From positions 115,764 to 179,763 of the forward strand of contig CAWCOX010000008.1 of the NCBI GenBank assembly GCA_963797235.1: DNA of 64,000 nt. Direction: 5' to 3'. Both the position numbers and the translations under genes were made by a program. The DNA is from an uncultured delta proteobacterium. GTDB lineage: Bacteria > Desulfobacterota > Desulfobaccia > Desulfobaccales > 0-14-0-80-60-11. Of the stretch, positions 15,153 to 23,106 are shown one piece after another. The notes beneath the pieces are model-generated. The model ran no database searches. It worked only from the letters and a program-made list of their open reading frames with translations, and was not told the DNA's origin. How positions within the stretch are numbered: position 1 is the stretch's first letter; every line of letters starts with the position of its first letter.

Positions 15153-15404
15153 ATGGCAACCGATCTGACGACTCTGCAAGCCGCCGTGGTGGTGGACTGC
15201 CGGGGCAGCGCCTGCCCGGGGCCACTCCTGGAGGCCAAGAAGGCCATTGGCCGGGTGAAAGTGGGCGAGATCCTGGAGGTGCTCTCCAATGATCCGGGCA
15301 CCAAGAGCGATATGCCCCTGTGGGCCATGAAAGTGGGTCACGAATTCCTGGGCTCCCTGGCCGCGGACGGCTACGACCGGATTTTTGTGGTCCGAAAGAA
15401 ATAG
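15153..15404 (+). CDS. tusA: sulfur carrier protein TusA/SirA family
   Basis: DCRGSACPGPLLEAKKAI (CPxP active-site motif). SD gaaggag. Confidence 0.85.
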   Translation: MATDLTTLQAAVVVDCRGSACPGPLLEAKKAIGRVKVGEILEVLSNDPGTKSDMPLWAMKVGHEFLGSLAADGYDRIFVVRKK

Positions 15405-15475: not shown

Positions 15476-15937
15476 ATGGGGGCCGAGAAGTACGCCGGCA
15501 AAATATTGATTCTGGCCACGGAAAGCTGCGCCTATCCAGGGGCCGACGCCGTGGGCCAGGGGCACCAGAGCTATCCGGCCAATACCTTCATCCTCCGGGT
15601 CAAGGACCCGGTGCTCTTCCCGGAGAAATTTTATCTGGATTGCTTCGCCAAGGGCATCGCCGGCATCATCATCATGTCCTGCGGGGTGGAGTCGCCCTAC
15701 CCGGGGTCCTATGAAGCCCTGGCGAAGCGCATCGACCGGGTCTATCCCCTGATGAGGGCGAGCGGCCTGGATATTCGCCGGCTGCGGCTGACCGCCATCT
15801 GCACGGTCTGCACCCGGGCCTTTCTGAACGAAGTGCGGCTGATGAACGACCTGGTCTCGGAGTTGGGACCGCCCGGCCGGGAGCGGCCGGCGGCGGCCGT
15901 TCAGGAGCAGCAGGCATGGGTCCGCAGCCAAACCTGA
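15476..15937 (+). CDS. MvhD/FlpD-like protein (Cys-depleted variant)
   Basis: KILILATESCAYPGADAVG...YPANTFILRV...GIIIMSC follows the FlpD fold pattern. Several cluster-binding Cys of canonical MvhD are missing. SD aggagg. Confidence 0.7.
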   Translation: MGAEKYAGKILILATESCAYPGADAVGQGHQSYPANTFILRVKDPVLFPEKFYLDCFAKGIAGIIIMSCGVESPYPGSYEALAKRIDRVYPLMRASGLDIRRLRLTAICTVCTRAFLNEVRLMNDLVSELGPPGRERPAAAVQEQQAWVRSQT

Positions 15938-17541
15938 AATTTGACGCCCTGGTCCTGGGCGGGGGCATCGCCGGGTTGGAGGCGGCCCTGAACCTGGCGG
16001 AGCAGGATTTTTCGGTGGCCGTCGTCGAAAAGGACGCCTCCATCGGCGGCAAGATGATCCGGCTCTCCAAGGTCTTCCCCACCCTGGATTGCTCCAGTTG
16101 CATCACTACTCCCAAGATGGCCGCGGCGGCGCATCATCCCAGGATCACCCTGCTCACTTACTGCGAGCTGCAAGCGCTGGCCCGCCGGGGCGACGAGCTG
16201 GTGGCGTCGATCACCCAAAAGCCGCGCTACGTGGACCTGGAGAAGTGCATCGGCTGCCGCCAGTGCGAATATCAGTGCCCGGTGCTGGCCGCCGATGGCG
16301 AGCAGGGTGGCTTTGCGGGCCGGAAGGCCATTTATATCCCCTTCTCCAACGCCATTCCTCCCAAGGCCCTGATCGATCCGGAGAACTGCATCCTGTGCGG
16401 CCGCTGTGCCAAGGCCTGCCCCACCGGAGCGGTCAATTACTTCCAGGAGCCGGAGGACTTCACCCTGACGGCGGCCACCGCGGTGATTGCCACCGGCTTC
16501 GAGATGATACCGCTGGAAGATAAGGTGCAGTATGGCCAGGGCCGGATTCCCGATGTGATTACGGCCTTGCAGATGGAGAGGCTGCTGGCGCCCCACGGGC
16601 CTTATAACCGGGTCCTGAGGCCTTACGACGGCAAGGAGCCCGATTCCGTGGCCTTTATCCAGTGCGCCGGTTCCCGGGACCAGAGTATGGGGGTGCCGTA
16701 TTGCTCCCGGGTCTGCTGCATGTACGCCATCAAACAGGCCATGCTGCTGTCCGGCTCGCTGCCCCTGGCGGACCTGACCGTCTACTATATGGACATTCGG
16801 GCCTTCGGCAAGGGCTATGAGCAGTTCTTCCAGAACGCCCAGGCCATGGGGGTCAATTTCGTCAAAGGCAAGGTGGCTTACGTGGAGCCGGGCGCAGACG
16901 GAGCGGTGCGGCTGCGCTACGAATCCCAGGAGGCCGAGGGCGGAGTGCAGGTGGCCGAACACGACCTGGTGGTGCTATCCCTGGGCCTGCTGCCGGGGTG
17001 GCTGCCGGACGGCCGCTGTGCCCTGGCCACCGGGGCGGATAACTTCATCAAGACTGTGAAACCAAAGCTGGCGCCGACCCTGACCGGGCTGGACGGGGTA
17101 TTTGTCGCCGGCGCCGCGGCCGGACCCAAGGATATCGTGGACAGCATCGTGGAGGCAGGCGCTGCGGCCATGGAGGCCTGCCGGTATTTAAGTAGCACCA
17201 GAAATAATGTAGGACAGGCGCCCTCGCCTGTCCAGGACAGCCGGAGGGCGGCTGTCCTACATGCAATTGCCGGAGAAAGCTTAATGGCGAAGACCAAGAA
17301 CCCCAACCCCGCTCCTGAAGCCAAAGTCGGGGTCTACGTCTGTCATTGCGGCGGCAACATTTCCGACGCCGTGGACGTGGCCCAGGGTTTGCGAGCAAGC
17401 CCGCAAGGTGCCAGGGGTGGTGGTGGCCCGGGACCATATGTTCATGTGCTCCGATCCCGGCCAGGAACTGATTATCGGGGACCTGCAGAGCGGGGTGGTG
17501 GACCGGGTGGTGGTGGCCTCCTGCTCGCCCAGTCTGCATGA
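15916..17541 (+). CDS. HdrA/QmoA-like FAD and FeS oxidoreductase (paralogue 1); the conserved part ends near 17180 and no in-frame stop follows
   Basis: VLGGGIAGLEAAL, TLDCSSCITTPKM, CIGCRQCEYQCP, CILCGRCAKACP, CAGSRD, YCSRVCC. As written, the frame runs on through a hairpin repeat and the start of the next gene to 17541. Confidence 0.75.
   Translation: MGPQPNLKFDALVLGGGIAGLEAALNLAEQDFSVAVVEKDASIGGKMIRLSKVFPTLDCSSCITTPKMAAAAHHPRITLLTYCELQALARRGDELVASITQKPRYVDLEKCIGCRQCEYQCPVLAADGEQGGFAGRKAIYIPFSNAIPPKALIDPENCILCGRCAKACPTGAVNYFQEPEDFTLTAATAVIATGFEMIPLEDKVQYGQGRIPDVITALQMERLLAPHGPYNRVLRPYDGKEPDSVAFIQCAGSRDQSMGVPYCSRVCCMYAIKQAMLLSGSLPLADLTVYYMDIRAFGKGYEQFFQNAQAMGVNFVKGKVAYVEPGADGAVRLRYESQEAEGGVQVAEHDLVVLSLGLLPGWLPDGRCALATGADNFIKTVKPKLAPTLTGLDGVFVAGAAAGPKDIVDSIVEAGAAAMEACRYLSSTRNNVGQAPSPVQDSRRAAVLHAIAGESLMAKTKNPNPAPEAKVGVYVCHCGGNISDAVDVAQGLRASPQGARGGGGPGPYVHVLRSRPGTDYRGPAERGGGPGGGGLLLAQSA
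17209..17260. repeat. double GGACAG hairpin element bounded by GTAG...CTAC
   Basis: gtaggacaggcgccctcgcctgtcc aggacagccggagggcggctgtcctac. Related hairpins occur at 24785 and 35120. Confidence 0.8.
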
Positions 17542-19222
17542 GGCCACGTTTCGCCACGCCCTGGCCCGGGCCGGAGCCAACCCTTACGTGTACGAACAGG
17601 CCAATCTGCGGGAACAGGTGAGTTGGGTGCATCACGGCGCCGAAGCCACGGAGAAGGCCAGCCGGCTGGTGGCCGCGGCCGCGGGCAAGGCCAGGAGGCT
17701 CAAGCCCCTGGAACCCATCCGGGTCGAGGTCGAGCGCCGGGCGGTGGTGCTCGGGGGCGGCGTAGCCGGGCTCAAGAGCGCCCTGGAACTGGCCGAGCGT
17801 GGCCTGGCGGTGACCCTGGTGGAGAAGAGCCCCTTCCTGGGGGGGCAGGTGGCGCAGTTAGCGCGTCTGGCGCCTGACGGCGAAACCGCCGCAGCAGTCA
17901 TCGGCGAGCTGGCCGGCGCAGTCCTGCGGCATCCGGCCATCACGGTGCTCACCTGCGCCCGGGTGGAAGAGTTCGGGGGCTATATCGGCAATTTCAAGCT
18001 CAAGGTGGTCAGGCAGACACCGACAGGCGAGGACTATGCCGAGCGCTGGGCCAGGCTGAGTCAGTCCGGGCGGGGCCTGGGGGAATATGTGCCCTTCGTG
18101 GGGGTCATGCCGACGGCCCTTCCCGAAGTCACTGAGGAGTTTGACCTGGCGGCCGGGGTTATCGTCGTGGCCACGGGTTTCCGGCCTTACCGACCCCGGC
18201 GGGGGGAATACGGCTATGGCGACTTTCCGGAGGTGGTGACCCTGCCGGAGTTCATCCGCCTGGTAGCCGAGGCCGAGGCCGGCGACACCCTGGTGTTAAA
18301 CGGCCGGGTTATCCGCCGGGCCGCCCTGGTCCACTGCGTGGGCAGCCGCCAGATCCCGGGCATCCATGCAGAGAATGACGGCGGCTACCTGAACGAGTAT
18401 TGCTCCCGCACCTGCTGCAGCGCCACGCTCTACGCCGCCAACCAGATTCGGGAGCAATACCCTAAAACGCGGCTATTCGATTTTTACCGGGACATTCGCA
18501 CCTATGGCCGGGGGCAGGAGGAGCTTTACACCCAGGCGGCCCAAAACGGCACCCTGTTCTTTCGCTTCGAGGCTGGCGAGGAGCCGCAGGTCTGGAGGAA
18601 TCCCGACCCCCAAGGGCCGCCGCTGCTGGTCAGGGTGAAGGATGTCTTGACCTTCGGCGAAGAATTAGAGGTGCCGGTGGACCTGGTGGTGCTGGCGGTG
18701 GGCCAGGAGCCCAATGACCTCGCCGACCTGGTGGAGAAGCTGAAGATCCCCGTGGGCGCCGACCGTTTCCTCCAGGAGGTCCACCCCAAGCTGCGCCCCG
18801 TGGAAGTGTCCGTGGCCGGCATCCTGCTGGCCGGGACCTGCCAGGCCCCCTTTGACGTGGGCGAAAGCTGTGCGGCAGCCGGGGCCGCGGCGGTCAAGGC
18901 CGCGGCGATCCTGACCCGGGGTTATGTGGAACTGGACCCCTTTGTTGCGGAGGTGGATCTCAGCCAGTGCGTGGGCACCGGCGCCTGCGTCGAGGCCTGC
19001 CTGGCCGATGGGGCCCTGGCTATGGTTGAGGTTGAGGTGGCGGGCGAGAAGGTGCGGCGCGCCCGGGTCAATCCGGCCCTGTGTCTGGGCTGCGGCGCCT
19101 GCGTGGCCGTCTGTTCGGAAAACGCCATCAACCTCCAGGGCTGGACCCTGAAGCAGTACGAGGCCATGGTGGAGATGATCGTCTCGGACGATTATCTGGA
19201 AGAGGCTGAAGGGGTTGGATGA
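17284..19222 (+). pseudogene. HdrA/QmoB-like FAD and FeS oxidoreductase (paralogue 2) with one frameshift at the GGG run 17385-17387
   Basis: The N-terminus MAKTKNP...VGVYVCHCGGNISDAVDVAQ is in one frame. VCEQARKVPGVVVARDHMFMCSDPGQ...VLGGGVAGLKSALELA...YCSRTCC...CVGTGACVEAC...CLGCGACVAVC is in the next frame. Removing one G joins them. Confidence 0.8.
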
Positions 19223-19311
19223 GCACTTTAAAATCCCCCTAAATCCCCCTTTTTCAAAGGGGGACTTAAATACGGGCCGTACCCTCAGCTTGGTTCGCCT
19301 TGAGGTTTCCT

Positions 19312-19641
19312 ATGGTGAATGAATTGACAGGACAAGAATCCGTGAAAGAGGCGCTGAAGAGACTGAAGGCGGCCCGGAAGGCGCAGATTGCTGCGGCCAC
19401 CGGGCGGATGCAGGAGCAGCGGCGGGCGGTGCAGGCGATCAAGGCGCGCCTGGCCGGGGCGGAACTGACTGTGCCCGAGATCGCCGCAGGCACGGGTCTG
19501 CCGGTCTCCGAGGTGCTGTGGTATGTGGCGACGTTAAAGAAATACGGGGAGATTCTGGAAGGAGCGAAGGCCGGCAGTTATTTTCGTTACCGGCTGGGGG
19601 AAGCGGCGGCCGCAGAGACGGAAGGGGGCCAGGATGAGTAG
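19312..19641 (+). CDS. hypothetical winged-helix-like protein
   Basis: About 110 aa; the segment LTVPEIAAGTGLPVSEVLWYVATLKKYGEI looks like a wHTH. It is embedded in the operon. Confidence 0.55.
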   Translation: MVNELTGQESVKEALKRLKAARKAQIAAATGRMQEQRRAVQAIKARLAGAELTVPEIAAGTGLPVSEVLWYVATLKKYGEILEGAKAGSYFRYRLGEAAAAETEGGQDE

Positions 19642-19668: not shown

Positions 19669-19971
19669 ATGACCCGGGTAGATCCCGATTTTGCCGAAGA
19701 GCTCAAGTTCTACGGGGTGGATACGGCCCTGGAGTGCTTTAACTGCGGCACCTGTGCGGCCATCTGCCCGTTGGTCTACGAGCATTTTCCCCGGAAGATG
19801 ATCCGCTACGTCCAGGTGGGGGCCAAAGAGAAGATCCTGCAGAATGGCGCGGAACTCTGGAGGTGCCTGCACTGCGGCCTGTGCACCCGGACCTGTCCCC
19901 GCCAGGCCAACCCCGGTGAACTCATCCTGGGGCTGCGCCGCTACGTGGTGGCGCACTCACGGAGGAAGTAA
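19669..19971 (+). CDS. hdrC: HdrC-like 4Fe-4S dicluster protein
   Basis: CFNCGTCAAICP and CLHCGLCTRTCP. Confidence 0.8.
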   Translation: MTRVDPDFAEELKFYGVDTALECFNCGTCAAICPLVYEHFPRKMIRYVQVGAKEKILQNGAELWRCLHCGLCTRTCPRQANPGELILGLRRYVVAHSRRK

Positions 19972-19975
19972 GTTA

Positions 19976-20930
19976 ATGTTTAACCCCAGGGACATCATCG
20001 ACCTTATCGCCGCCAATGTGCGGCGGAGCCGCAATCCTTTCGGGGCGCCCGCCTCCCGGCTCAACACCTGGTGGCGAAAGAATGGCGGCTTTACCCGGCG
20101 GCCGGGGGACGCCCTGCTCTTCACCGGGCTGATGTACCAGGCCATCCCTTATATCGAGGCCACCACCCGTTACCTGGAGCGCCTGGAGGGCAGCCGCTGG
20201 GCGGATTATCTGCGGTTCGGCCGCTATCTCCCCGGCGTCGCTCACGGGTTGGGGATTATCCTTGCTGACCTCGGGGGCGGAAAAGCAGAAATTTGACGGC
20301 ATCCTGCGGTCCATTTGCCGTCTCCTGGACAAATCGGGGGTGGACTTTTTCTATCATCCCGAGATGGATTTCTATAGCGGCATCCTGCTTTACGACCTGG
20401 GGGACCAGGAGGGCTTTGCGGCGCACGCCCGGTTCGTGGCCCGGAATTTGAAGCTGCACGGTGTCAAAAAGCTCATCACCGTTGATCCGCATACCACCTA
20501 TGCCCTGAAAGAACTGTATCCGCAATACACCGGGGAGACTTTTGAGGTGCAGCCGTACTTCAGCCTGCTGAAGCTCGGCAAGGCCGGCGGCGGCAACGGC
20601 CGGGGGCCGGTGACCATCCACGACCCCTGTTTTTACGGGAGATACCTGAAGCTCTCGGCAGGGCCCCGGCAGGTGCTCAGCAGCCTGGGTCTGGAGTATG
20701 TGGAAGTGCGCAACTGCGGCGAGTTCACCTCTTGCTGCGGCGGCCCGGCGGAGTCGGTGTCCCCGGCCCTGAACCGGGAGATTTTGGGGCGGCGGGTGGC
20801 GGAACTACAGGCCAACGGCGCCCCGGTGGTCACCTTCTGTCCCATCTGTCTGGCCAACCTGCTCAAGGCGGGGGTGGCCGTGGAAGACCTGGCCAGCCTG
20901 GCGGACCGCTATGTTGAAGGCGAAACTTAA
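19976..20930 (+). pseudogene. hdrB: HdrB-like CCG-domain protein with one frameshift in the G5 run 20273-20277
   Basis: ATG 19976 after ggaggaag. The N-terminal part ends ...GLGIILADLGG; the continuation AEKQKFDGILRS...HDPCFYGRY...CCGGP...FCPICLANL is in the next frame. Confidence 0.8.
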
Positions 20931-20963
20931 CACAGCCCGAAATCCAAATAAGGAGGGTTTGAT

Positions 20964-21335
20964 ATGGCGGAAGAAAAAGAAAAAATGGTTTTAGTCGCCA
21001 CCCACGCGGGGGAGGACCCGGAGCGGGCCCTTTTTCCCCTAATGCTGGCCACCGCGGCCCAATCCATGGACGTGGAAGCCGTGGTGGTCTTACAGGGTAA
21101 CGGGGTCTATCTGGCCAAGAAAGGCTATGCCGACGACATCACCTTTCCCGGCCTGACCCCCATGAAGACCCTGGTGGAAAGCTACGTCGCCAACGGCGGC
21201 ACGTTCCTGGCCTGAATTCCCTGCCTCGCGGAGCGCAAGATCAGTCAGGCTGACTTGATCCAGGGAGTAGAGTTGGTAAAGGCGGGACGGTTGGTAGTGG
21301 AGATGACCAGCGCCAAATCCACGGTGGTTTATTAA
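20964..21335 (+). CDS. DsrE/DsrF-family selenoprotein (in-frame UGA at 21213-21215 read as Sec)
   Basis: MVLVATHAGEDPERALFPLMLATAAQ...GGTFLA-[UGA]-IPCLAERKISQADLIQGVELVKAGRLVVEMTSAKSTVVY. The same frame stays open for 39 more conserved codons. The UGA sits where family members carry the first Cys of CxxC. SD aaggagg. Confidence 0.75.
21239..21260 (+). other. candidate SECIS stem-loop
   Basis: gatcagtca-ggc-tgacttgatc is a 9-bp stem with one bulge and a G-rich loop, starting 24 nt after the UGA. It was not folded computationally. Confidence 0.4.
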
Positions 21336-21346
21336 ACATTTGAGCT

Positions 21347-21406
21347 AGTGGCACAGGCTTCTCCCAGCCTGGGTTCCTCACAGGCCAGAGGCCTGTGCCA
21401 CTTAAG
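21347..21406. repeat. AGTGGCACAGG...CCTGTGCCACT structured 60-nt element (copy 1)
   Basis: Long hairpin with 11-bp terminal stems. A second copy of about 75% identity, in opposite orientation, lies at 51034-51094. Confidence 0.75.
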
Positions 21407-21407
21407 C

Positions 21408-22790
<1,383 letters not shown>

Positions 22791-22869: not shown

Positions 22870-23106
22870 ATGAAAGCTAATCAACAACTGGATATTTGCG
22901 GGGAGATGACTCCCGTCAGCCTGGCCATCTGCAAATGCACCCTGGCCCGACTGGCGTCCGGGGCGGTCTTGGAAATCCGCCTGCGGGATCGAGATACCCT
23001 GGCGGATTTGCTGATGATCGTGGAGCGCTCCGGGGATCAGGTCCTGGCCTGGGAAAACCGGGAGGAGCACTACCTTTTGTGGGTAAGGAAAAGTATCCCT
23101 GGATAA
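22870..23106 (+). CDS. TusA-related small protein (non-canonical active site)
   Basis: LDICGEMTPVSLAICKCTLARLASGAVLEIRL has a TusA-like fold pattern, with CGEMTP in place of CPxP. Confidence 0.6.
   Translation: MKANQQLDICGEMTPVSLAICKCTLARLASGAVLEIRLRDRDTLADLLMIVERSGDQVLAWENREEHYLLWVRKSIPG

Follow-up and report, generated by a model that had tools for sequence, protein, structure and literature searches.

A predicted U-x-x-C selenoprotein of the DsrE-like family at the end of an Hdr-like gene cluster in an uncultured deltaproteobacterium

Described DsrE-like proteins and the present locus

DsrE-like proteins (Pfam02635) with a UxxC motif were reported in the Sargasso Sea selenoproteome as two sequences accompanied by a predicted SECIS element (Zhang et al. 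2005, PMC1088965), and a DsrE-like selenoprotein was listed for Desulfovibrio vulgaris in a subsequent survey (Zhang et al. 2006, PMC1794560). The table of a 2026 review (PMC13188914) gives the DsrE-like family one Sec, the motif UxxC and an uncharacterised function, crediting its reference 12; the forms UxxU and CxxU are not listed for the family in that table. Selenoproteins of this DsrE-like UxxC family have been known since 2004, and the gene described here, which lies in a stretch of 64,000 nt (the window) of a 3.69-Mb genome assembly in 23 contigs, is a correct rediscovery and a further member of the family. Reference 12 of the review is reportedly the 2004 work of Kryukov and Gladyshev. 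Our gene shares with this family the Pfam family (PF02635), the U-x-x-C motif, the Sec/Cys pairing and a predicted SECIS just after the UGA, as well as a single Sec per protein and a host of the deltaproteobacterial anaerobe type, the likeness being drawn from family and motif. The orthologue group to which it belongs differs in being tied to an Hdr-like operon and in including UxxU and CxxU forms.

The sulfane sulfur carriers DsrE (of DsrEFH) and TusD (of TusBCD) hold their persulfide on a single nucleophilic Cys (Cys78) (PMC3397948). The fold is the same as that of our protein, with Foldseek matches to 2hy5 and 2d1p at TM 0.74–0.79, and U84 would occupy the equivalent strand-to-helix junction according to the structural model. 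The present protein differs from both in its additional, presumably resolving, Cys and in having Sec in place of Cys; moreover, no DsrF/DsrH or TusB/TusC partner genes were found adjacent to it, the neighbors being hdr-like genes and a sigma-54 activator. YedF, which combines a SirA/TusA-like domain with a DsrE-like domain containing a CGxC motif, has been linked to selenium metabolism (PMC5322559). Both systems associate a DsrE-like domain bearing a C-x-x-C-type motif with a TusA-like module, but YedF is a fusion protein and not itself a selenoprotein, whereas TusA and DsrE are encoded here by separate genes of an hdr operon. The archaeal protein 3mc3 (Sulfolobus solfataricus) is likewise a small stand-alone DsrE domain and retains the Cys aligned with U84, but it has neither Sec nor the second Cys (VCVQSLK).

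DsrE3-type proteins of sulfur oxidizers are encoded beside hdr and tusA genes, and the Hdr-like genes of these organisms characteristically follow the order hdrC1-hdrB1-hdrA-hyp-hdrC2-hdrB2. The proximity of dsrE to hdr and tusA is common to both systems; the clusters of sulfur oxidizers are, however, ordered differently from the arrangement found here (tusA, mvhD-like, hdrA-like, hdrA, 113-aa, hdrC, hdrB, dsrE), and the present host falls in a sulfate-reducer lineage (Desulfobaccales-type relatives). Another parallel is offered by DsrC with DsrK, in which a protein-bound di- or trisulfide is reduced by a CCG-domain subunit. In both cases an HdrB/HdrD-type iron-sulfur subunit with a CCG domain would serve, or be encoded together with, a small protein whose two chalcogen residues are redox-active, although the folds are unrelated and the link at our locus is suggested by gene order only.

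Reading frame, fold and the residue 84 column

The dsrE-like gene starts with the ATG at 20964 on the + strand, 7 nt behind a Shine-Dalgarno-like AAGGAGG (20950–20956, +), and gene callers end it early, at codon 84 (83-aa ORF, 20964–21215). Read directly from the sequence, codon 84 is TGA (21213–21215, +), beyond which a further 39 codons follow in frame (IPCLAERKISQADLIQGVELVKAGRLVVEMTSAKSTVVY) before the TAA at 21333–21335. Translated with TGA as U, the full coding sequence (20964–21335, +) yields 123 residues with the motif U84-I-P-C87, where U84 replaces the invariant first Cys of C-x-P-C and codon 87 (TGC, 21222–21224, +) supplies the second Cys, the presumed resolving residue. The initial annotation had already given the 83-aa ORF stopping at this TGA, the 39 further open codons and the motif U-I-P-C, and its coordinates all check out.

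The read-through product spans positions 2–113 of the 116 in the Pfam model DsrE (PF02635) with 53.4 bits, against a gathering cut-off of 22.7, whereas the 83-aa piece matches the first half only (26.9 bits). Matches of the protein in NCBIfam were all below threshold, and the search there returned no curated equivalog naming it. An AlphaFold2 model built from an alignment of 43 full-length homologues forms a complete DsrE domain (mean pLDDT, 93; pTM, 0.86), for which the best Foldseek match was 3mc3 (TM 0.86), with further matches to YchN, DsrEFH, TusBCD and MTH1491. Residue 84 ends strand 80–84 of the model and residue 87 lies within helix 85–90, while the 83-aa piece would be deprived of two strands and two helices of the fold. 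The frame and motif continue across the UGA, only the read-through product gives a full DsrE match and the predicted fold is confident and complete. Taking these points together with the Cys column, the conservation in relatives, the SECIS footprint and the Sec machinery described below, we consider it highly probable that 20964–21335 is one gene encoding a 123-residue DsrE-fold protein in which the UGA at codon 84 is decoded as selenocysteine.

The UGA column corresponds to an invariant Cys in the full-length homologues (C-x-P-C), as had been anticipated for a selenoprotein; C84, P86 and C87 were invariant in all 43 full-length sequences, and codon 84 was TGC in 21 and TGT in 15 of the 36 related Cys-type loci. 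TGA occupied this codon in 29 genomes of the same order, and the downstream frame aligned to residue 123. A search of a large protein collection returned matches of two types, namely 123-aa C-x-P-C proteins and many entries of 82–83 aa that end exactly at residue 83. Since the DNA underlying the 83-aa entries runs on in frame, and TGA with its downstream frame recurs in 29 genomes, the short entries represent the same miscall rather than homologues ending at the UGA. Codons 101–123 of the Sec-type genes varied mostly synonymously with the amino acids fixed, which indicates that the tail is translated.

Among solved structures, the sequence search yielded 3mc3 as the sole relative (E = 1.2e-13), and its conserved Cys aligned with U84. 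The motif region of 3mc3 (VCVQSLK) has Ser instead of the second Cys. The earlier suggestion that DsrE/DsrF proteins normally carry C-x-x-C therefore does not apply generally, although its first Cys, the one replaced by Sec here, is also found in 3mc3; judging from these alignments, it is this subfamily, and not DsrE/DsrF proteins at large, that is characterized by the second Cys.

As regards annotation, this gene and dozens of similar database entries, including the UniRef entry of the cultured Desulfobacca acetoxidans, should be extended to 123 aa, with residue 84 given as Sec. The truncated calls drop the redox motif and one-third of the fold.

SECIS hairpin, Sec machinery and other readings of the TGA

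A bacterial SECIS-type hairpin was recognized by folding and conservation at 21239–21260 (+), beginning 23 nt past the UGA. It consists of a 9-bp stem with one bulged U, formed by GAUCAGUCA (21239–21247) and UGAC-U-UGAUC (21251–21260), and an apical loop GGC (21248–21250), and thus presents a stem-loop soon after the UGA with a small, G-containing apical loop. Compared with the fdhF SECIS of E. coli, it differs in its apical loop of only 3 nt and in the bulged U on the 3' side. No Rfam family matched the hairpin, the matches obtained being of the miRNA/lncRNA type, at chance level and on the downstream inverted repeat. The 63-nt stretch folds at −19.8 kcal/mol, a value equaled in 42 of 200 shuffles (z = −0.83). 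As the hairpin is not thermodynamically exceptional, we turned to comparative evidence.

The hairpin was identical at the nucleotide level in nearly all Sec orthologues, with a C>U change in the loop of two, and this invariance left no covariation obtainable within the Sec clade. Synonymous variation was near zero at codons 86–100 (21219–21263, +) in the Sec-type orthologues, where the mean synonymous-codon entropy was 0.03, compared with 0.74 elsewhere in the gene (26 distinct Sec orthologues). No other stretch of 15 codons in the gene is as low, and 20,000 order shuffles never gave so low a value (permutation p ≤ 5e-5). The same codons were not frozen in the Cys-type orthologues (1.14 versus 1.37; 36 loci). 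On this comparison, the synonymous freeze is the footprint of a SECIS. The stem-loop proposed in the initial annotation is accordingly real and conserved as nucleotide sequence, while its folding energy does not confirm it by itself.

A relative with 58% identity (L080, 3995–4363; a single genome, from a long-read MAG) carries the motif C-T-P-U, with Sec at the second position, and a perfect 8-bp hairpin (AGAUCGCU-GAA-AGCGAUCU) located 13 nt past its UGA. This hairpin is encoded by the codons for K-I-A-E-S-D-L with the choices AGC, GAT and CTC, whereas Cys relatives with the same KIAESDL peptide use TCG, GAC and CTG and have no hairpin. An independent Sec form with a different hairpin at the homologous place supports the SECIS reading. 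In one Desulfobaccales species, the motif is U-I-P-U, the two TGAs lying 9 nt apart and upstream of the hairpin that our gene also has (L071, 4001–4369; L133–L140), and this form was identical in eight independent assemblies; one hairpin would then serve both UGAs. The motif is found as U-x-x-C in most Desulfobaccales, as C-x-x-U in one lineage with its own predicted SECIS and as U-x-x-U in one species.

Sec and Cys forms were observed among very close relatives. The 123-aa matches P0002 and P0003 are true Cys forms, and the possibility that they are Sec proteins written with C was ruled out by the TGC in their DNA. The gene of P0003 (L141) differs from its Sec sister L048 solely by TGA/TGC between 12 nt before codon 84 and 78 nt after it, and the first 83 residues of P0002 are those of the 83-aa D. 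acetoxidans entry (P0061). More broadly, the TGC forms (L141–L146, 301–672), compared with L048, L070 and P0061, are very close to their TGA sisters. The SECIS hairpin is still intact in the Cys forms P0002 and P0003, which suggests recent switches from Sec to Cys between closely related strains, in two separate sub-lineages. Such sister strains, with TGA exchanged for TGC and the SECIS kept, could be a natural system for studying Sec/Cys exchange.

The genome encodes the complete Sec machinery, with selB (358.6 bits), selA (596.5 bits), selD (309.7 bits) and tRNA-Sec (selC; 76.8 bits) all above their cut-offs, and ARAGORN likewise called the tRNA as SeC with anticodon TCA. An in-frame TGA was also present in selD itself and in three homologues of fdhA (formate dehydrogenase alpha). 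Besides the in-frame TGA, selD (G000 C8:373711–374609) and one fdhA (C4:53259–55269) each match as two adjacent pieces in different frames, for which assembly indels are the more likely cause. Frameshifted genes of this genome should not be taken for pseudogenes without consulting the raw reads. The proposal of a U-x-x-C selenoprotein truncated in the annotation is upheld: the UGA falls in a Cys column, coding conservation extends beyond it, the SECIS block is frozen at synonymous sites and the genome has all of the Sec machinery. These lines of evidence together argue for Sec decoding; selenium insertion at U84 is a prediction from sequence comparison. SelB with Sec-tRNA(Sec) would presumably be recruited by the hairpin at 21239–21260, which lies inside the coding sequence. 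Current knowledge of Sec decoding is unchanged by this finding.

If the TGA were instead a true stop, the gene would encode an 83-residue DsrE fragment, and the 39 downstream codons would be a decaying pseudogene tail. The gene callers and many database entries do give 83 aa, and TGA is common as a stop within the window; but the amino acid sequence of the tail is conserved in 29 genomes, where variation is mainly synonymous, the 83-aa piece falls short of the DsrE fold by two strands and two helices, the Cys forms are full length and the SECIS footprint is present, so that we hold a true stop to be very improbable. Equally hard to credit is low-efficiency read-through of the UGA by a near-cognate tRNA (Trp or Cys) outside the Sec pathway. 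Such an explanation could appeal to the leakiness of UGA known in bacteria and to the fact that Sec at U84 is deduced from sequence alone, but it is opposed by the complete set of selA, selB, selC and selD, by the synonymous freeze of the hairpin in TGA-bearing genes only and by the position of the codon in a redox-active Cys column, which is typical of a Sec/Cys pair. Wholesale reassignment of TGA to Trp or Gly was ruled out, as TGA closes many long frames (26 of 63 within the window) and the aligned residue is Cys.

The TGA might also stand for a TGC that was misread in sequencing or assembly, the assembly being prone to error: the hdrA and hdrB-like genes contain 1-nt indels, and selD and fdhA also look split across frames; sister strains with TGC exist as well. 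The errors observed are, however, indels and not substitutions, and TGA occurs in 29 genomes, short-read assemblies included. Furthermore, the TGA stands without any difference in contigs from four runs, three of DNA and one of a metatranscriptome, that cover 21180–21259 or more, the metatranscriptome contig spanning the UGA and most of the hairpin. Assembly error was ruled out by the 29 genomes and these four independent runs, and it is the least probable of the explanations considered. The nearby 1-nt indels do mean that the local sequence quality is imperfect, but for the TGA there is independent confirmation. In L101 and L115, two copies of the dsrE-like gene from long-read MAGs, frame changes show as scattered extra TGAs when a single frame is read; they are probably due to assembly indels and not to additional Sec codons.

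Hdr-like cluster and possible role

The selenoprotein gene predicted here is the last of a same-strand cluster, tusA-mvhD-hdrA-hdrA-113-aa-hdrC-hdrB-dsrE, all on the + strand. The cluster opens with tusA (15153–15404; Pfam TusA, 70 bits, with the CPGP motif), followed by an mvhD/FlpD-like gene (15476–15937; Pfam FlpD PF02662, 53.9 bits), two hdrA-like flavoprotein genes (15916–19222; Pfam Pyr_redox_2/FAD and Fer4 domains), a conserved 113-aa protein of unassigned role (19300–19641; sub-threshold HTH_IclR match only), an hdrC-like 2x[4Fe-4S] ferredoxin gene (19669–19971; Pfam Fer4_8, Fer4_17 and related models) and an hdrB-like CCG-domain gene (19976–20930; Pfam CCG). Convergent with dsrE is a gene for a PAS/sigma-54 activator/HTH_8 regulator (21408–22790, − strand; Pfam), which holds the same position in several relatives. 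Between these two convergent genes, a perfect 12-bp inverted repeat (AGTGGCACAGGC ... GCCTGTGCCACT; 21347–21402) with a 32-nt spacer was read from the sequence; no T-run follows it on the + strand, and it is probably a shared two-way terminator.

Two of the cluster genes are interrupted in this assembly. The second hdrA-like gene changes frame by 1 nt near 17385–17400, where a three-frame reading of the junction gave ...GNISDAVDVAQ in one frame and VCEQARKVPGVVVARDHMFMCS in the next; the site coincides with a C/G run (GGCCCAGGG), and the change is probably a 1-nt assembly indel. The hdrB-like gene appears as two ORFs (19844–20296 and 20262–20930), split by a 1-nt indel near 20236, and contigs of two other runs are one base shorter at 20236/20237. 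It is intact in the relatives L133–L139 as a single ORF of 318 aa.

The order hdrA, 113-aa protein, hdrC, hdrB, dsrE was found in most of 80 related loci, spanning Desulfobaccales, Syntrophobacterales, Desulfarculales, Desulfobacterales, Desulfatiglandales and Desulfomonilaceae, and a second arrangement among the relatives places dsrE directly 3' of the 113-aa gene. The 113-aa protein is encoded in nearly all of the related loci, always between hdrA and hdrC or dsrE, a conservation more suggestive of a structural component of the complex than of a regulator. Literature searches for this hdr-dsrE cluster found no description of it.

A functional model was drawn from the gene neighborhood and the motif position only. 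U84 lies in the structural model where strand 80–84 ends and helix 85–90 starts, and it aligns with the conserved Cys of 3mc3. The residue would be the sulfur-accepting or attacking nucleophile and C87 the resolving residue, such that U84 might accept sulfane sulfur, for example from a TusA persulfide, or form a selenenyl-sulfide with C87. The HdrB-like subunit of the Hdr-like complex, with its CCG domain, could in turn make or reduce this protein-bound Se-S bond, by analogy with the reduction of DsrC by DsrK. Sec, compared with Cys, would allow faster nucleophilic attack and re-reduction. A role of U84 as a sulfane-sulfur acceptor or Se-S former served by the Hdr-like complex is therefore put forward tentatively, as a possibility that we neither strongly favor nor dismiss. 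More doubtful, although worth stating, is the wider proposal that the orthologue group constitutes a dedicated protein substrate, carrying persulfide or selenenyl-sulfide, of an uncharacterised MvhD/HdrA/HdrA/HdrC/HdrB-type complex conserved across Desulfobacterota, with an unusually plastic catalytic pair.

In the predicted arrangement, the last gene of an Hdr-like operon encodes a DsrE-type sulfur carrier whose nucleophilic residue is selenocysteine, which points to a step of Se-S chemistry in Desulfobaccales and related sulfate reducers, within their energy or sulfur metabolism. The role of this Sec/Cys protein for the Hdr-like complex is the more interesting question. A second TusA-family ORF (22870–23106; 36.8 bits) was observed 3' of the sigma-54 activator gene; in place of the usual TusA active-site Cys-Pro it reads D-I-C-G-E-M-T-P, with the Cys three residues earlier.
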